A stretch of DNA of 32,000 bases from Pyrobaculum aerophilum str. IM2 (GTDB taxonomy: Archaea; Thermoproteota; Thermoprotei; Thermoproteales; Thermoproteaceae): positions 1,680,001 through 1,712,000 of the forward strand of contig NC_003364.1 of NCBI RefSeq assembly GCF_000007225.1, given 5' to 3'. The notes below the pieces were generated by a model. That model made no database searches. It was not told the DNA's origin and saw only the letters and a program-made list of their open reading frames with translations. How positions within the stretch are numbered: position 1 is the stretch's first letter; the number at the start of each line of letters is the position of its first letter. Of this stretch, positions 5,597 to 31,228 are shown one piece after another. Made by a program: the position numbers and the translations under genes.

Positions 5597-6577
5597 ATGT
5601 ACTGCGGCTTCCGCGTGAGGTTCGTGGGGCGTTACGTGTGTTTCTCAAACCGTTTAACAGAGCTGGAAGAACTTTTGGAAATGGCCAGGCGCGGCCTCTC
5701 TATGCCTCTTTTGATATACGGGCCGGAGGGCTGTGGGAAAACAGTCTTATTGAGGTATTTATACCAGAGGCTGGCAGAGGGGTATGAATACGTAATTTAC
5801 TACTCTCCTCTACACGGCGTCGACGAGGGCCTTGTATCTACTGACGACGTGAAAAAAGCCGTAATATCGCTTGCAAACGCCTTTGGCGGGACTCTGGCGG
5901 CTGTGGCGGAGGCCGTTTTGGCAGTGGGCGAGTTGTTGGCCAAAAGGCTGGGGGTGAGGAGGGCCGGCGGCATTGCAATACTACTCGACGACGTATTCCA
6001 AGCGGTTGGAAGCGTTGAGTTATACGTAAAAAAGGCACTGACGGTGGTGGAACACCCCCCAATTGAAGTAGATAAAACGTTTGTAATAATAGCGTCGTCA
6101 GAGGGAGTCGGCTTGGAGGCCGTCGGGAGACACCTATGGACAAATATAAAAACACTGTGGAATTTAGATAAAGAGGGTTTTAAAGAGCTTATAAGCCAGA
6201 TAGGGGGAGATGTGGAGCGGCTGTGGAAGCGGTCTGGGGGAAACCCCAGGGCTGTGGAGCTACTCGGCGACGAGGGGTGGTCTGTGGAAAAGGTAATTAA
6301 AAAGATGTACAGGGCTGACAACATTGACTTGAAGCTATTGGCCAGACATAAAGCAATAGTCGAGAGGGCTGTGGAGGATCCCGACGCGCTGCTCGAAGCG
6401 CCGCAGGAATTAACGCGCTATCTCCTTTCAAAAAACTTAGTGGCGAGAATAATTGACCCCATAAGGCGAATTGAAAGAGATAAAGAGCTGGGGATCGGCG
6501 AGGAGTACGCCTGGCAAACGCCGCTACACCGGAGTGCTGTGGAAATAGCACTGCGGCAATTGAAAGGGGCGCCGTAA
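5597..6577 (+). CDS. P-loop NTPase of the archaeal ATPase (Arch_ATPase/AAA-like) type
   Basis: FVGR...ELEELL, then Walker A (YGPEGCGKTVLL) and Walker B (AILLDDVFQ). I place the start at ATG 5597 rather than track start 5489, which overlaps the upstream gene. Confidence 0.7.
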   Translation: MYCGFRVRFVGRYVCFSNRLTELEELLEMARRGLSMPLLIYGPEGCGKTVLLRYLYQRLAEGYEYVIYYSPLHGVDEGLVSTDDVKKAVISLANAFGGTLAAVAEAVLAVGELLAKRLGVRRAGGIAILLDDVFQAVGSVELYVKKALTVVEHPPIEVDKTFVIIASSEGVGLEAVGRHLWTNIKTLWNLDKEGFKELISQIGGDVERLWKRSGGNPRAVELLGDEGWSVEKVIKKMYRADNIDLKLLARHKAIVERAVEDPDALLEAPQELTRYLLSKNLVARIIDPIRRIERDKELGIGEEYAWQTPLHRSAVEIALRQLKGAP

Positions 6578-23564: not shown

Positions 23565-24560
23565 CTATGTGTTTATATATTTAATGTAGGGGAGGATTAG
23601 GTGTTCGTGTACTTGTCGCGGCGGTATGTTAAGCTTAACCGAATACTGGCCAAGCGGCGTGCCGCCGAGTTTAGTCAGCTCGTACGCGGCTAGCCCGACG
23701 ACGCAACTGCCCTGTCCGCATCTAACTACGATTTTATACGGCGGAGGGGGGTATATGTGAGCTATTAACGTCCCCCGGCTGTAATAGCTCCTGACCTCCA
23801 CCGCCATTCGCCCCGCCTCTACCACTGGGATGAAAGTCCTGGGGTGGAAGTTCTTAGCCCCCACTTTGGCCGCCTCAACGGCCTCTTGTACGGACAACAG
23901 CGGCAATACATAGGCCTCTTGCACCTCCCTGGGATCGGCCGTCATTACGCCTGGGGAGTCTGTGACTAAGGACACTTTCCTAGCCCCCAGCTCTTTGCCT
24001 ATATAAGTGGCCGTATAGTCGCTGCCGCCCCTCCCCACTGTGGTGAACCTGCCCTCTTTATCCCTTCCAATAAAGCCGGTGACGACAGCCACAGCGTCTG
24101 GCCGTGACATCTCCTCCTTATGCTCCAGCGCAATTGGCTCGGCGTTTCCGTAATTGCTATCTGTGAGCATCGGCGCGATGAAGAGCTTGGCCTCAATCCC
24201 CATTTTCTCAAGAACTGCGTGTAGCATTGTTGCTGAGAGCCTCTCGCCAAATGACGCGAAGTAGTCCGCAGACCACGGCGCGTGCGGAAGCCTTAGGGCG
24301 TACTCAAGCTCTTTTAACAAGGGGGCGATCCTCTCCTCCACCCCCAGCCCTCTGGCGATAGAGATGTGCCTATGTGCCAACTCCTCGTATAGCAAATAGC
24401 TCCTAGTTTTTTCAAGTTGTAACAATAAATCCGTCACGCCCTTTACCGCGGACACCACCACCACGGGGGGTTCGCTGTAAGCGGCTACAAAGTGGGCTGC
24501 TTGCACGAAGTCCGCGGCGGAGCGTAGGAGAGAGCCGCCTATTTTTACCACTGGTTTCAT
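23565..24560 (-). CDS. Aspartate kinase, short form (331 aa)
   Basis: Amino-acid kinase fold: VVKIGGSLL, VVVSAVKGVTD, RGGSDYTA and VMTADPR. Only about 60 aa follow the kinase domain. ATGA overlap with the thrC stop codon. Confidence 0.85.
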   Translation of the reverse strand: MKPVVKIGGSLLRSAADFVQAAHFVAAYSEPPVVVVSAVKGVTDLLLQLEKTRSYLLYEELAHRHISIARGLGVEERIAPLLKELEYALRLPHAPWSADYFASFGERLSATMLHAVLEKMGIEAKLFIAPMLTDSNYGNAEPIALEHKEEMSRPDAVAVVTGFIGRDKEGRFTTVGRGGSDYTATYIGKELGARKVSLVTDSPGVMTADPREVQEAYVLPLLSVQEAVEAAKVGAKNFHPRTFIPVVEAGRMAVEVRSYYSRGTLIAHIYPPPPYKIVVRCGQGSCVVGLAAYELTKLGGTPLGQYSVKLNIPPRQVHEHLILPYIKYINT

Positions 24561-25704
24561 TTTTCCAAAAGCTCTATCAGCTCGTCTGCATTTCTCACCT
24601 CCTTCGCTGTTATTTCTATAACGTCGGGGTCTTTCAGCGCATGGCCGGTTACCACGGCCACGGCTACTCCCCCTATATTTAATTTAATCGCCGCGGCTAT
24701 TGACGCGGCGCCCGCGGGCTCCGCCCCTATGCCGTCGCGAGTTGCCAAGAGCCTCTGCGCCTTTAATATCTCCCCGTCAGACACTTTTACGAAAAAGCCT
24801 CCTGACTCCTTCACGGCCCTCAGCGCCTTGGGCCAGTTTATAGGCCTGCCGATTTTAATTGCCGTCGCCACTGTGTTAGGCTCGTCTACAAAAAGCGGCT
24901 CCTCCACGCCGCGGGCCCAGGCCTCGACAAGCGGCGCCGCGCCCTCCGCCTGGACGCCCACCATTTTCGGCAGTTTATTACAAAGCCCCAGCTCGGCGAG
25001 TTCCCTAAACCCCTTCCATATAGCCGAGATATTCCCCGCGTTTCCCACTGGCACTATTACGTAGTCCGGACACCCCAGCTCTTCGTATATCTCAAAGGCC
25101 ACGGTCTTCTGCCCCTCCAGCCTCCACGGGTTAAAGCTGTTTAGAGGATATGCGTATTTTGTCCCGTAGTTAACCACGTAGTCAAGCGCCTTATCAAATA
25201 GGCCGTTTATCATAACAAGCTCAGCGCCGTGTAACGCCGCTTGTATTAACTTCCCCCTGGCCACATTGCCCTTGGGCAAAACTACATAACACCTAAGCCC
25301 AGCCCTAGCGGCGTAAGCCGCCGCAGAGGCCGCCGTGTTGCCAGTAGACGCCACGACGACTTTATTGGCGCCGCTCTCCTTGGCCACAGTCACGCCGAGG
25401 GCCATTCCCCGGTCTTTAAAACTTCCAGTTGGGTTAGCCCCTTCAAATTTTACATACAGATTCTCCGCCAGATTGGATTTCACCAGGGGGGTCCTCCCCT
25501 CTCCCAGGGATATCCCGCTTTTAAGAGGCAACATTGTTGAATAACGCCAGATCCCGTTGCCCTTTGGGGCCCAGACTTTATTACGAACTTCCACTTCAAG
25601 CAAGCCGCCACATTTAGGACATCTATATAGCCGGTAATCTGGGGCAAACCTCTCGCCGCAAGTTATACACTTAAGGCGTACATCGTCCCCGAAATCCCCG
25701 CCAT
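24557..25704 (-). CDS. thrC: Threonine synthase with an N-terminal zinc ribbon; the body frame has no start before TTG 25603, and the only upstream ATG (25704) is in the frame 1 nt downstream
   Basis: PLP-lysine block GANPTGSFKDRG and full-length TS similarity. The Zn ribbon LKCITCGERFAPDYRLYRCPKCGG is encoded in-frame upstream of the track start. ATG 25704 lies 18 nt after ATTATATATA. Confidence 0.85.
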
Positions 25705-25722: not shown

Positions 25723-25759
25723 TATATATAATCTTTTTGCAGAAGAAAAACTTATATAG
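25723..25759. promoter_or_regulatory. Back-to-back divergent BRE/TATA elements for thrC (minus) and the lysX-like operon (plus)
   Basis: Minus strand: GCAAAAAG-ATTATATATA, then 18 nt, then ATG 25704. Plus strand: GAAGAAAAA-CTTATATA, then 19 nt, then ATG 25778. Confidence 0.55.
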
Positions 25760-25777
25760 AGGTTAAATGAGGGTGGC

Positions 25778-26451
25778 ATGGATCTGGGGCCAGAGGGGAA
25801 AGTGGGGCGATTTACGTCGTTACAGACAGCCCCACTGTATATGACAAGGTAATAGTTGACGCCCTATCCTCTAAAGGAAAAAGGGCATCTATTCTCAATG
25901 TCTCCGAAATTCCTGTCTATAAAATACGCGGAACAGCGCTACTCCGGCTGAGCAATCCGTACGCCGCGGTGATTTACGGCCAAGTTGCCGAGGCGAGTAT
26001 AAACCCGCCTGAGGCGATATCCTCAGCCTTAAATAGACTCGCTTGGATTTCTAAATTCGGCCCCCCTCACGTGATAATCTCCACGGACTATTCTGTGGAA
26101 AAAGTGGAGCTTGAAAGGCCGTGGTTTTTAATGACTGCTTGGAGGCTCGAAATAGACGGCTCTGTCACCAGCGTAGAGGGGGCGAGGAGCGTGTTAGAAC
26201 ACAGGATGTACATGAAAAACCCGCTATCTAAAGTCTCCTTAGTCGTTCCCAAGCCTCACAGAACGATATCTGTTTTCGCCACAGTGAAAAACGCCACCGG
26301 CCTCGTGTCTGAGGTGTTGAGCCACTTGGGCCTTTTATATGCGAGAGTAGTGCTGGGGGACTACGGCGGGAGACATTTCGTAATAGACGTCGACCCGGTG
26401 CCGAGGCTTGAAAACAAAGAAGAGGCTCTGGCGGTGGCGGAGTTGTTATGA
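25778..26451 (+). CDS. Divergent LysX/ArgX-like ATP-grasp homolog; the body frame lacks a start before GTG 25969, and ATG 25778 is in the frame 1 nt downstream
   Basis: The body frame, open from 25771, reads GAIYVVTDSPTVYDKVIVDALSSKG...INPPEAISSALNRLAWISKF...HRTISVFATV...GGRHFVIDVDPVPRLEN. This is collinear with LysX/RimK-type ATP-grasp proteins but about 60 aa shorter. ATGA overlap with argC. Confidence 0.55.
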
Positions 26452-27503
26452 AAGTCTGTATTATAGGAGCGTCGGGCTTTGTGGGCGGGGAGCTTTTGAG
26501 AATACTCTTGCAACACAGCGGCGTGGAGGTGGTCTGTGCCACTTCTAGAAGATTTAAGGGGGAGTATGTATACAGAGTTCACCCCAATCTGAGGGGGTTC
26601 ACCCAGTTGAAATTCGTAGAGCCCTCAATAGACGCGGCGTTGAAAGCCGATGTGGTATTCCTCGCGTTGCCGCACGGTGAGTCTGTCAAATGGGTCCCTA
26701 AGCTCTACGAGTCTGGCGTCGCGGTTTTTGACCTCAGCGCGGACTTCAGGCTGAAAGACCCCAACGCATATGTGGAGTGGTATAAGTGGCCGCAGCCTCA
26801 CCCCTATCCTGACCTTTTACAAAAAGCTGTGTACGGCCAGCCGGAGCTACACAGAAGCGAACTAGTAGGGGCTAAGCTCGTGGCAGTGCCCGGCTGTATG
26901 GCAACGGCGTCTATATTAATGCTGGCGCCTTTAGCTAAACACGGCTTGTTGGGAGAGACGCCGCCTGTGATAGACGCCAAAATTGGATCAAGCGGGGCTG
27001 GGGCTGAGGGGTCAGTGGTAGATCTCCACAGCTTTAGGACATATGTAGTGAGGCCCTACGAGCCCGTGCACCACCGCCACATAGCCGAAATTGAGCAAGA
27101 GCTCAGCCTCCTCGCGGGGAAAAGAGTTAAAGTGGCCTTCACCCCGCACGCAGTCGATATGGTCAGGGGGATTTTCGCCACAGGCCACGTCTTTGTGGAA
27201 AAAATGCCCACTGAGGCCGACATGTGGAAAATGTATAGATCTATGTACGGAGATTCTAAATTTATACGTATTGTAAAGGACAGATTGGGGATTTCCAGGT
27301 ATCCAAATGTAAAATACGTACTGGGTTCTAATTTTGTAGATATAGGCTTTGAGTTAGACCAGAGGCTTAATAGGCTGGTGACCTTCTCGGCTATAGACAA
27401 TTTAGTGAGGGGTGCCGCCGGGCAGGCAGTACAGGCTTTTAACGTGGCAATGGGCTTTCCCGAGGACGAGGGCCTTAGGTACATACCGCTGGCGCCAGTA
27501 TGA
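26448..27503 (+). CDS. argC: N-acetyl-gamma-glutamyl-phosphate reductase family enzyme (ArgC/LysY)
   Basis: [18 protein letters not shown] Rossmann motif, active-site PGCMATA, and C-terminal [13 protein letters not shown]. Confidence 0.9.
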
Positions 27504-28285
27504 TCGTCGTAAAAATTGGAGGATCGGTAGTGTGTAAAGACGCCTCAAAAGTTATTCAAAACCTCCCTAAATACGCAGATAGGGCTGTTGTTATACACGG
27601 AGGGGGGTGTCTGGTGAATGAGTTGTTAAAAAGAATGGGAATAGAGCCGAAGTTCTTGACGCACCCAGGCGGGCTTGTGAGCAGATATACCGACTGGGAG
27701 ACTTTGAAAGTCTTTGTAATGGCTATGGGCTGGATTAATAAATACATCGTCGCCTCTTTACACGGCCTCGGAGTCCAAGCCCTTGGCCTCACGGGGGCTG
27801 ATCTCGGCGTGGTAGTGGCCAAGCGCAAGGAGAGGGTTTTAGTTATCGACGAGAGGGGGAGGCAGAGGGTTGTGGACGGGGGATACGTGGGGAAAATCGC
27901 TGAAATACGCGTTGACAAATTAACGCCGCCTCCGCTGAAAGTCCTGGCCCCAGTAGCCGTGTCAGAAAAGGGAGAGCTTTTAAACATCGACGGGGACCAA
28001 CTGGCCTTTGACGTAGCGAGGGAGGCGAAGGCGGAGAGGCTTATTCTACTCAGCGACGTGGAAGGCCTCATCCTCGGGGGAAAAGTAGTGCCGCGCCTCA
28101 CACCTGAAGAGGCGGAGAAACTCGTAAAAAGCGAAGAGGTTAGGGGCGGCATGAAGAGAAAACTCCTCATGGCCTCTGAAGCGGCCAAGTTGGGAATTGA
28201 AGTAGTTATATCAAGCGGCCTGGTTGATTCCCCAATAGATGCGGCTCTTAACGGCGCTGGAACTCACATCATTAAAAACATATAG
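27500..28285 (+). CDS. argB: Acetylglutamate kinase family enzyme (ArgB/LysZ)
   Basis: [26 protein letters not shown] and GGMKRKL motifs. ATGA overlap with argC. Confidence 0.9.
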
Positions 28286-29783: not shown

Positions 29784-29939
29784 ATGGGGCAAAGAACTGT
29801 GGTGTGTCCAAATTGCAAAAAACCGGTGAAACCCGTGGAGTGTAACAGAAAAAACCAAACGAGGCGCTACGTGGTTATTACCTACTGCTGTCCTAAATGC
29901 GGAACAGAACTATTAACTGAGAGGGTTGAGGTACACTAA
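29784..29939 (+). CDS. Small basic zinc-ribbon protein (51 aa), not in the ORF track
   Basis: MGQRTVVCPNCKKPVKPVECNRKNQTRRYVVITYCCPKCGTELLTERVEVH. CPNC..CPKC knuckles. ATG 18 nt after GGTTTTATATTG. The stop TAA overlaps the argH ATG (TAATG). Confidence 0.5.
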   Translation: MGQRTVVCPNCKKPVKPVECNRKNQTRRYVVITYCCPKCGTELLTERVEVH

Positions 29940-31228
29940 TGAGTTTTTACAGATCTTGGATAGGGGGGACGGGGGATTTAGTTAAGAAGTACACTTCTAG
30001 CATTAAAGACGACGTGGAACTTGCGGAGGAGGTTGTGAGAGTTATGAAGGGCCACGTGGCCCACCTCGTGGAGATAGGGTCTATTCCAAAAGAGGCGGGG
30101 GAGAGGATAATAAAGGCATTAGAGGAGGTAGACGCCTCTGAGCTACTTAAGGAGGAGTTTGAAGACGTCCACGAGGCGTTAGAAAAGTGGCTGATAGACA
30201 AACTGGGGGAGGAGATAGGGGGCTGGGTGGGCCTCGGCAGGTCTCGTAATGATCACGTCGCCGCGGCAATTCGGCTTGCCGCGTTAAGAAAGACGGAAAG
30301 ACTGAAGGAAGAGGCGTGTAGGCTCAGATGCGCCTTGGCTAAGAGGGCCCTGGAATACGCCGATTGCCCCATGCCGAGTTTTACGCACTTCCAGCCGGCC
30401 CAGGTGATTACCTTTGGCCACTACCTCTTGGCCATAGACGAGCTCTTGGCAGAGTTTTTACACATATTACGAGGAGTAGAGGATTTGTTAAACCGCTCTC
30501 CCCTCGGAGCGGGCCCAGCCGGGGGGGTGAGGACGCCGTTAGACCGCCGCAGGCTGGCGGAGCTAGTTGGGTTTAAAGAGGTTGTTGAAAACGCCTTATA
30601 CGCCTCAGGCAGCCGCTTTTTCGCCTTAGCGCTAGCCTCGGCGGTGGTTTCTTTTCTCGCCGAGCTGTCGCGGGCGGTAGACGATTTTATTAGGTGGAAC
30701 AGCCCGGTAGTTGGGTACGTGAACTCCCCTGATAGTCACGTGTCAACTAGTAGCATAATGCCTCATAAACGCAATCTCGTGACTCTTGAAGTGTTGCGGG
30801 CTAGAATTGCCGAGGCGCTTGGCCACTTCGCCGCAATGAGCGCCTTAGTGATGAAAGTGGGAATGGGCTACAGCTTAGATCTCCAAGAGGCAACCCGCCA
30901 CCTTTGGGCTGTTTTGAACATCGCCACTGAGGGCATGGCCGTGTTTAGAGATTTCATAGAGAACATGGCGTTTAACTGCGAGAAATCCCGTAAAGACGCC
31001 GAGGCCTACTTTACAACTTCCTCAGATACGGCGGAGGACGAGGCCCTTAAAGGAGTGCCTTTTAGAAAGGCGTATTTCCAGCTGGCAAGCGCCATTAAGG
31101 CCGGGACTGCCAGACTGCTGACAATTAATGAGGCATTGAAGAGGCCCGTTTATGGGTCTGCCAACACCGAGGAGGTGAAACGCGCCGCGTCGAGGAGATT
31201 AGCCCTTTGCAGGCCCAAGCCTCTCTAA
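29939..31228 (+). CDS. argH: Argininosuccinate lyase
   Basis: GRSRNDHVAAA and SSIMPHKRN fumarate-lyase signature blocks, 429 aa. Confidence 0.9.
   Translation: MSFYRSWIGGTGDLVKKYTSSIKDDVELAEEVVRVMKGHVAHLVEIGSIPKEAGERIIKALEEVDASELLKEEFEDVHEALEKWLIDKLGEEIGGWVGLGRSRNDHVAAAIRLAALRKTERLKEEACRLRCALAKRALEYADCPMPSFTHFQPAQVITFGHYLLAIDELLAEFLHILRGVEDLLNRSPLGAGPAGGVRTPLDRRRLAELVGFKEVVENALYASGSRFFALALASAVVSFLAELSRAVDDFIRWNSPVVGYVNSPDSHVSTSSIMPHKRNLVTLEVLRARIAEALGHFAAMSALVMKVGMGYSLDLQEATRHLWAVLNIATEGMAVFRDFIENMAFNCEKSRKDAEAYFTTSSDTAEDEALKGVPFRKAYFQLASAIKAGTARLLTINEALKRPVYGSANTEEVKRAASRRLALCRPKPL

Follow-up and report, generated by a model that had tools for sequence, protein, structure and literature searches.

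The threonine synthase gene of Pyrobaculum and Thermoproteus is probably expressed through a programmed −1 frameshift close to the 5′ end of a predicted leaderless mRNA

By 2021, only one archaeal cellular −1 programmed frameshift had been established experimentally, that of the alpha-L-fucosidase gene fucA1 of S. solfataricus, and its purpose was unknown (PMC8211752). This gene, the closest described counterpart of the case presented here, consists of a 0-frame and a −1-frame open reading frame (ORF) and is expressed by ribosomal −1 slippage, for which a route involving the P site only has been discussed (PMC1616953, PMC8211752). In bacteria, E. coli dnaX and B. subtilis cdd are cellular −1 sites with an upstream Shine-Dalgarno (SD)-like stimulator, and limiting aminoacyl-tRNA is known to lead to −1 shifting by one-tRNA slippage (PMC8211752, a review of archaeal recoding), the 'hungry codon' being treated in a further review (PMC5009743). 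Leaderless mRNAs, for their part, were first described in Pyrobaculum aerophilum (Slupska 2001, as cited in PMC6028130). Here we analyse thrC, the gene of threonine synthase (ThrC), in a stretch of 32,000 nucleotides (nt) of P. aerophilum str. IM2 (NC_003364.1, positions 1,680,001 to 1,712,000; hereafter the window, in which position 1 is the first letter), an origin borne out by exact matches of proteins encoded beside thrC (AAL64504, AAL64505 and AAL64508), and argue, with a probability that we put at roughly 0.7, that thrC of the whole sampled Pyrobaculum/Thermoproteus clade is expressed via a programmed −1 ribosomal frameshift at the sequence U_UCG_GGG.

On the minus strand of the window, the letters from 25704 down to 25663 read ATG GCG GGG ATT TCG GGG ACG ATG TAC GCC TTA AGT GTA TAA, a short ORF of 13 codons that encodes MAGISGTMYALSV (Table 1). 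The thrC frame, which ends at 24557, is offset by −1 relative to this ATG. Going upstream, it stays open until a stop near 25765 and contains no ATG, GTG or TTG before TTG 25603; upstream it reads ..FLGHGGDFGDDVRLKCITCGERFAPDYRLYRCPKCGGLLEVEV, and the same upstream stretch also reads ..HGGDFGDDVRLKCITCGERFAPDYRLYRCPKCGGLLEVEV.., while its product matches the solved threonine synthases 2zsj, 6cgq, 2d1f and 1uim with E values of 5e-90 to 1e-80. Two runs of four G lie within the short ORF, at 25699-25696 and 25690-25687, and the 0-frame codons that follow them are ATT (Ile) and ACG (Thr), respectively. An earlier, sequence-only reading of this DNA had proposed that ATG 25704 opens a 13-codon ORF, that the zinc-ribbon N-terminus of ThrC lies in the −1 frame with no canonical start before TTG 25603, and that the two G4 runs precede Ile and Thr codons, and we confirmed each of these points on the minus strand. 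It had also held that a leaderless ATG and a −1 shift on a G4 run are needed to enter the ribbon frame, and had suggested a comparison with the thrC 5′ ends of related organisms; that comparison, in which 35 of 36 distinct regions had the same layout, strongly supports the proposal.

Table 1. Positions in the window of the features of the thrC leader, of thrC itself and of the two genes that follow it.
Feature	Position	Strand	Observation
Short 0-frame ORF, MAGISGTMYALSV and stop; 13 codons plus TAA (25665-25663)	25663..25704	−	Read from the sequence; predicted dead-end product of non-shifted translation
Predicted leaderless start ATG, 0 frame	25702..25704	−	Invariant in 35/35 distinct sequences; fixed distance from TATA
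Promoter: AAAAAGA (25738-25732), resembling a TFB-recognition element (BRE), and TATA box TTATATATA (25731-25723)	25723..25738	−	TATA at about −27 to −19 from the A of the ATG
First G4 (G_GGG_AUU)	25696..25699	−	24/35 sequences, most Pyrobaculum
Invariant 9-mer T_TCG_GGG_AC	25685..25693	−	Identical in 35/35, about 14 lineages
Candidate slippery heptamer U_UCG_GGG, with G run 25690-25687, then AC	25693-25687	−	Inside the 9-mer
0-frame A-site codon ACG (Thr)	25684..25686	−	ACA or ACG in 35/35
Overlapping −1 codon GAC (Asp)	25687-25685	−	Follows automatically from G + AC
thrC coding sequence, −1 frame, from the Asp codon after the putative slip to TGA	24557..25687	−	PF00291 (PALP), E = 1.4e-71
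Zinc ribbon CxxC-(12 residues)-CPKC, thrC (−1) frame	25610..25669	−	Codon-position variation, invariant Cys
TTG, annotated start in GenBank/RefSeq (AAL64506, WP_011008974, 348 aa)	25601..25603	−	Relatives have CTT, CTC or CTG
Aspartate kinase gene	23565..24560	−	ATG overlaps the thrC stop as ATGA at 24560-24557
Aspartate-semialdehyde dehydrogenase gene (asd)	22533..23552	−	Own GGAGGGG box 6 nt before ATG

The sample was assembled from the DNA surrounding 12 protein clusters and from a single metagenome scan, for which an N-terminal alignment served as the seed, and yielded 36 distinct thrC 5′ regions from about 14 species-level Pyrobaculum/Thermoproteus-like lineages; it drew on complete genomes (P. 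islandicum, CP000504, and P. ferrireducens, CP003098), metagenome-assembled genomes (MAGs) and metagenomes, and its Thermoproteus-like groups are only 65-75% identical to the window. One plan recurred in 35 of the 36 regions, namely a TATA box fixed at −27 to −20, an invariant ATG, one or three further codons, the 9-mer T_TCG_GGG_AC followed by A or G, and thrC, always at −1 relative to the ATG, whose own frame closes after 7-13 codons at a stop position and with a C-terminal peptide that are not conserved. The three codons of most Pyrobaculum leaders are GAG or GCG, then GGG and ATT, those of one lineage (L106) being GAA AAC GTT, and the one-codon spacers (L107-114, L125-130 and L134) are GAT, CCT or CTT; in seven MAG assemblies of a 94%-identical relative, the first 21 nt were identical. 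The distance from the ATG to TCG was either 3 or 9 nt and that from GAC to the first ribbon cysteine (Cys1) 12-24 nt, with indels always in multiples of three, and thus the ATG frame is kept upstream of the 9-mer and the thrC frame downstream of it. The sequence TTCGGGGAC was found 49 times in ~150 kb of related loci, every time at the 5′ end of thrC in the register of the ATG, and once in the 32-kb window. At the level of sequence comparison, these alignments establish the out-of-frame layout, the invariance of the ATG and of the 9-mer, the frame-preserving nature of the indels and, as described below, selection on the ribbon.

Such a layout could also have arisen through erroneous sequencing or through a frameshift that strain IM2 acquired recently, the true gene then having an extra G and a plain ATG. 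The break does adjoin G4 runs, and P. aerophilum is reportedly known, from work by Fitz-Gibbon et al. in 2002, for unstable mononucleotide runs. However, 35 distinct sequences obtained by different projects and technologies shared the frame relation and an identical 20 nt, with no in-frame version among the retrieved entries, and we give this explanation almost no credence: judging from the comparison, the out-of-frame layout is neither a sequencing error nor a strain lesion. Among the 30 closest protein clusters with retrieved sequences, no in-frame 'repaired' thrC was found, even though one extra G would suffice. The AC dinucleotide is moreover conserved without evident need in a poorly modelled N-terminal tail, and these two observations together favour a selected function over a tolerated lesion.

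One 454-era contig from Great Boiling Spring (L090; JGI 2028778003, protein P0004) reads TTCGGGGGACAGGTTCC in the slip region (1508-1535). Its G run is GGGGG, a further G is inserted four bases later, and an alignment of 1463 nt with L116, a 90%-identical relative, shows no gaps other than these two. By itself, the first added G would bring the ATG into frame and give MEGISGD.., the same as the predicted shifted product. Repeat insertion of the same base beside a homopolymer is typical of pyrosequencing carry-forward, and with two extra Gs within 5 nt and a further frame break in the aspartate kinase gene of the same contig, we regarded it as a probable 454 artefact rather than a true +1 variant.

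In an outgroup represented by L132 (1020-1210) and L133, both from the same organism, thrC is 64% identical, lies in a different gene context and starts at a normal ATG served by a GGGAGG box. A leaderless-looking ORF of 26 codons, MELAVMPLAVVPRRYNPMDGSGGAPP, stands before it; this ORF ends in ..MDGSGGAPP, and its stop overlaps the thrC start (ATGA). The tail of this ORF, ATG GAC GGC TCG GGA GG, resembles the Thermoproteaceae leader ATG GAT TCG GGG, and on this resemblance the ORF may be an ancestral leader ORF that predates the frameshift.

The case for recoding turns on whether the zinc ribbon is translated. Over 29 ungapped ribbon codons counted from Cys1, variable sites at codon positions 1, 2 and 3 numbered 17, 17 and 29, and synonymous and nonsynonymous differences stood at 6484:4572 in the thrC frame as compared with 1192:9887 and 1275:9711 in the other two. 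The codon of Cys1 alternates between TGT and TGC, and the four ribbon cysteines are invariant in 36 archaeal ThrC proteins. An AlphaFold2 model of the thrC-frame translation had a mean pLDDT (predicted local distance difference test) of 93.5, with values of 92-96 in the ribbon (residues 8-39) and lower ones, near 70, in the first ~10 residues. By these codon statistics the ribbon, which is said to have been described in ThrC by Kaur and Subramanian in 2017 (cited in PMC5906684), is under purifying selection in the −1 frame only, and hence translated. No canonical thrC-frame start (ATG, GTG or TTG) precedes Cys1 in 26 of the 35 sequences, and a start farther upstream in the thrC frame was rejected since in several lineages that frame is closed by a stop lying between promoter and ATG, such as the TAG three codons upstream in L116. 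Given a selected ribbon and no other entry into its frame, translation should begin at the ATG of the other frame and switch to −1 ahead of GAC, and on this evidence we hold it highly probable that ATG 25704 is joined to the thrC frame by recoding, whatever the mechanism. The argument follows from selection on the ribbon and not from catalytic necessity, as by analogy with bacterial enzymes a ThrC without the ribbon could still be active.

It is this last point that lends some weight to internal initiation, by which the ATG ORF would be a regulatory or incidental upstream ORF and ThrC would start at TTG 25603, at GTG 25594 or at the non-canonical ATA 25666 or CTT 25675. Current annotations use such starts; solved bacterial ThrC proteins function without a ribbon, aligning from residue ~52 onward, and the TTG-25603 product covers the region aligned to solved structures; in nine Thermoproteus-like sequences a canonical start (ATG, GTG or TTG) does stand in frame just ahead of the ribbon, and there internal initiation may coexist with the frameshift; and the upstream ORF of the outgroup overlaps a normal thrC ATG. 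Yet neither TTG 25603 nor GTG 25594 is conserved, and a 94%-identical MAG relative (L081) has no canonical in-frame start at all within the 170 nt examined from its ATG. Starts at or after ATA 25666 are ruled out by the selection on the ribbon, Cys1 included; CTT and CTC each have two mismatches to AUG; none of the candidate starts has an SD-like box at a useful distance; and any internal start leaves the invariance of T_TCG_GGG_AC unexplained. We therefore judge internal initiation in place of recoding to be unlikely, and TTG 25603 is most likely, from its alignment with the relatives, an ordinary Leu codon. Reinitiation after the stop of the short ORF was likewise rejected, this stop being unconserved and lying after the selected Cys1 in Pyrobaculum.

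The databases reflect the difficulty of placing this start. For P. aerophilum thrC, entries from several independent assemblies use five different starts, giving 348 amino acids (aa) from TTG 25603, 345 aa from GTG 25594, 369 aa from an ATA in the first CxxC, 331 aa, and 325/326 aa, and none of them contains the whole ribbon. Entries from the Thermoproteaceae at large (P0001-P0027 and P0151-P0162) range from 325 to 409 aa with inconsistent N-termini, some starting at ATA (P0008, P0156), some at an internal Met, some inside the ribbon (P0002, P0005-P0007, P0026), and others being over-extensions translated through the promoter (P0001, P0003, P0019). Neither of the two reconstructed frameshift products was present in the protein collection searched. 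Set against the selected frame, every thrC database entry that we saw in the clade has a wrong N-terminus, and constructs or structure models made from such entries would lack or mangle the zinc ribbon.

We aligned 17 lineage representatives at the ATG to characterize the promoter. A(−31) and T(−26) were invariant, positions −25 to −21 were 100% A/T, and in all 17 representatives a pyrimidine at −1 preceded the A of the ATG (position 0), forming a pyrimidine-purine (YR) initiator. Positions −18 to −1, apart from that pyrimidine, varied freely, while the ATG itself was invariant. An invariant ATG at a fixed distance from BRE and TATA, preceded by a pyrimidine and an unconserved spacer, behaves as a start codon. 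The same TATA register was seen at other leaderless-looking genes of the window (12879, 20382, 15072 and 11944), and with this register and a YR initiator at its start codon, thrC has the sequence features of a leaderless archaeal mRNA.

Turning to the shift itself, we found that the 9-mer is fixed although all third codon positions vary in the neighbouring ribbon, and that the T before TCG is invariant while the 0-frame codon to which it belongs changes between ATT, GTT, GAT, CCT and CTT. Protein coding in the 0 frame does not predict an invariant T at this place; a slippery heptamer, for which U_UCG_GGG is the candidate, does. After a −1 move on this heptamer, tRNA-Gly, be it in the A or the P site, re-pairs perfectly (GGG to GGG) and tRNA-Ser keeps two of its three pairs (UCG to UUC). 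The codons between the ATG and the heptamer gave mixed signals as to the frame they code in, the GGA/GGC and GCC/GCT alternatives looking synonymous in the −1 frame and GAG/GAA and ATT/GTT conservative in the 0 frame.

Both G4 runs had been put forward as slip sites in the sequence-only reading, and of the two only the second stood as a universal one: the first G4 is missing in 11 of the 35 sequences, namely in L106 (ATG GAA AAC GTT TCG GGG) and in ten sequences with a one-codon spacer, and thus the universal candidate for the slip site is the second run. For the same reason we rejected the first G4 as a universal site and, with it, a hop from the first GGG to the second. The insertion of 6 nt, GGGGAT, into the one-codon leader ATG GAT TCG GGG AC yields the three-codon leader and repeats the slip core. 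It also creates, at a short spacing, an SD-like GGMGGGG (M being A or C), which 24 of the 35 sequences have as GGAGGGG or GGCGGGG and the other 11 lack; the GGAGGGG of the leader is the same 7-mer as the SD box of asd. The first G4 may accordingly serve as an auxiliary slip site or as a stimulator. With the slip at the second run, the product is likely, as read from the sequence, to begin MAGISGDD.. rather than MAGDFGDD...

Two accounts of the 9-mer do without a shift by the ribosome at this site. In the first, some transcripts gain one G when RNA polymerase copies the C4 template at 25690-25687, which would give the same MAGISGDD.. product; the shift point is indeed a homopolymer, and the G5 of the L090 contig stands at the exact place, albeit in DNA and probably as a 454 error. 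Known transcriptional slippage tracts, however, are long runs of A or T, of 7 to 9 or more. By comparison a G4 is short, its hybrid is stable, and such runs abound in the window. Codon-anticodon constraints account better than polymerase stuttering for the invariant bases on either side, TTC ahead of the run and AC behind it, and we consider polymerase slippage a rather improbable source of the shift. In the second, the 9-mer serves as an RNA signal or as a binding site, for instance an operator, that has nothing to do with frameshifting, and the frame is solved by some other decoding event. Invariance at the nucleotide level with neither a canonical heptamer nor a stimulator would suit such a role, as would the match of the first run, in most Pyrobaculum, to the local SD-like GGAGGGG. 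On the other hand, an Rfam search returned no family match, no conserved structure was detected, the 9-mer sits exactly at the required frame junction, and the pattern of indels switches frame across it, so that we see little likelihood in an unrelated signal. A bulge-helix-bulge (BHB) intron or a UUCG tetraloop in the motif was rejected as well, there being neither complementarity nor a closing pair.

We thus favour a −1 ribosomal frameshift at U_UCG_GGG, which would proceed as follows. Transcription would start on the A of ATG 25704 or on a neighbouring base, at its fixed distance from the TATA box, and the ribosome would initiate at the 5′-terminal AUG and read AUG GCG GGG AUU UCG GGG. On the heptamer, tRNA-Gly, perhaps together with tRNA-Ser, would then move back by one base, GAC (Asp) would be decoded instead of ACG (Thr), and translation would continue through the ribbon and the pyridoxal phosphate (PLP)-dependent core to 24557, giving a predicted product of 382 aa, MAGISG-DDVRLKCITCG... 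(assembled from the sequence as MAGISG followed by DDVRLKC...). Ribosomes that do not slip would stop at the TAA after 13 codons and make no ThrC and probably little aspartate kinase. That the ribosome is the agent of the shift, as well as the exact tRNA movements and their efficiency, we infer from the nature of the conserved site.

Several observations weigh against this mechanism. U_UCG_GGG is not a canonical X_XXY_YYZ heptamer. A conserved downstream hairpin or pseudoknot was not found, RNAalifold on 16 lineages giving −0.87 kcal/mol with 0 compensatory pairs; folds of single sequences at 90 °C were weak and inconsistent (−0.1 to −9 kcal/mol), and the GGGG...CCCC pairing possible in some sequences was dismissed as coming from a Y/F-A-P codon stretch that is missing in others. 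In-frame G_GGG occurs 66 times in 5340 codons of ordinary genes of the window, which implies that the G run alone is not strongly slippery and that extra context must be assumed, and the codons of the slip site are common rather than rare, which also disposes of a rare-codon pause. To these come the extra Gs of L090, the nine Thermoproteus-like sequences with a canonical start near the ribbon, and the ribbon-less bacterial enzymes, all described above. These points suggest that the UUC prefix and the AC suffix must contribute to the shift, and the proximity to the 5′ end too: the slip site is only 6-12 nt from the 5′ end of the predicted leaderless mRNA, where the nascent peptide is very short. 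By analogy, the missing stimulator fits a regime of one-tRNA slippage under limiting aminoacyl-tRNA.

The gene downstream of thrC would share its fate. Since the start of the aspartate kinase gene overlaps the thrC stop, translation of the kinase probably depends on ribosomes that have shifted into thrC, and the same 4-nt overlap was found in relatives. The sequence-only reading had regarded thrC, the aspartate kinase gene and asd as a single translationally coupled string; the thrC-kinase overlap bears out its first part, whereas asd, with an SD box and a TATA-like stretch of its own, does not fit the second. It starts 12 nt past the kinase stop without overlap and carries the Shine-Dalgarno-like GGAGGGG in addition to the TATA-like stretch in leaderless register, and from these signals it may be expressed independently of thrC and the kinase gene. 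In the window segment 23552-23600 (−), the end of the kinase gene contains TTAAATATATAAAC, which is followed by TAGGAGGGGCTACGT and the ATG.

The surroundings of the thrC leader are variable, while its promoter and leader are not. In the window, a 160-aa ORF without a Pfam match lies divergently from thrC (25969-26451, +); in the 94%-identical MAG relative (L081, 299-781), a 160-aa PaREP1 gene lies upstream of thrC on the same strand; and other species have an unannotated gene of 177-230 aa and an argC/lysY-like gene in this place. Farther along the window (26448-28285, +, and 29939-31228, +) we noted three genes, of which the first encodes an argC/lysY-type reductase (AAL64508) and has its stop overlapped by the start of the next, for an amino-acid kinase, while the third belongs to the lyase_1 family. 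The region beside the thr operon thus appears to be an amino-acid biosynthesis neighbourhood.

The position of the slip site raises a tentative idea about regulation. After the slip-site Gly, the 0 frame has Thr (ACA or ACG) in all 35 sequences where the −1 frame has Asp (GAC); the duplicated core offers Ile (AUU) versus Asp (GAU). The frameshift could on this basis act as a metabolic sensor, by which low threonine and available aspartate switch on the Asp-to-Thr pathway, although we think this less likely than not; the Thr/Asp pairing amounts to a single coincidence, since the AC after the G fixes both codons. In a sensor of this kind, tRNA-Gly would sit on G_GGG, and decoding of ACR (R being a purine) would lead to the dead end after 7-13 codons, whereas a slip would lead to ThrC and, via ATGA, to aspartate kinase. 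The frequency of the shift would rise when Thr-tRNA is scarce and the A site waits on ACR, the duplicated G_GGG_AUU of most Pyrobaculum would add sensing of isoleucine, and the place of a stimulatory structure would be taken by the location at the very 5′ end, where the exit channel is empty of mRNA and the nascent chain is still very short. If true, this would be the archaeal leaderless-mRNA counterpart of amino-acid attenuation, working through recoding. To our knowledge, attenuators and amino-acid riboswitches are largely unknown in Crenarchaeota, and the thrC site is a candidate for amino-acid-responsive translational control in this group.

A likeness to the thr leader of E. coli had been drawn in the sequence-only reading, and it holds in part. 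Both have a very short ORF before threonine biosynthesis genes with codons for Thr and for Ile (the latter in most of the thrC leaders), and the 0-frame Thr codon after the slip is present in 35 of 35 sequences. Missing from the likeness are the run of regulatory codons and the terminator/antiterminator: E. coli has codon runs and hairpins, whereas the thrC leader has one Thr and one Ile codon and an ORF that would be fused to the gene by recoding instead of acting on transcription, and between the short ORF and thrC we found no terminator-like site and, by RNAalifold, no conserved hairpins. The thrC leader is not a thr-type attenuator; we also know of no established transcription-translation attenuation of the thr type in archaea. 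The bacterial prfB gene (release factor 2, RF2) and eukaryotic antizyme offer another parallel as cases of autoregulatory recoding: a short 0-frame product is a dead end unless the frame shifts, and what reads the A-site codon during the shift reflects the product or pathway of the gene itself, a part that in thrC might fall to the Thr ACR found in 35/35 at the head of the threonine operon. Their shift is +1, however, and that of thrC −1, and a thrC sensor would rely on a sense codon and on how far its tRNA is charged instead of on a stop codon or polyamines, the regulation of thrC being hypothetical.

Stimulation of −1 shifting in E. coli reportedly has its SD-like optimum at 10 to 14 nt. As in dnaX and cdd, most Pyrobaculum thrC genes have an SD-like sequence, GGAGGGG, upstream of the slip site, but it is missing in 11 of 35 sequences and lies only ~3-6 nt from the slip codons, and dnaX additionally requires a downstream hairpin and yields two useful products. 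A full-text search, together with the 2021 archaeal recoding review, a 2016 review of frameshifting and the GeneTack survey, gave no mention of frameshifting in Pyrobaculum, Thermoproteus or ThrC, though an earlier report is still possible, and the thrC shift appears to be a programmed frameshift, not described before, of a core gene in archaea. Another parallel is the hungry-codon, one-tRNA slippage on dnaX, in which, as is proposed for thrC, a P-site tRNA stands on a repetitive codon next to an empty A site with no structure involved (PMC8211752); in bacteria this is an error or laboratory regime, not reported as a conserved and required route to a housekeeping enzyme. Closest of all remains fucA1, which differs in having a canonical A_AAA_AAT in mid-gene, rare codons and a putative stem-loop, while the thrC site is U_UCG_GGG within codons 3-6 with no conserved structure, an unusual site that bears on how early-elongating archaeal ribosomes maintain their reading frame. 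Finally, the fucA1 shift is confined to two S. solfataricus strains whose relatives have an intact gene, whereas thrC has the same layout throughout the family with no intact version seen and would, if our reading is true, represent a family-wide and apparently obligatory frameshift in a core gene of amino-acid biosynthesis.

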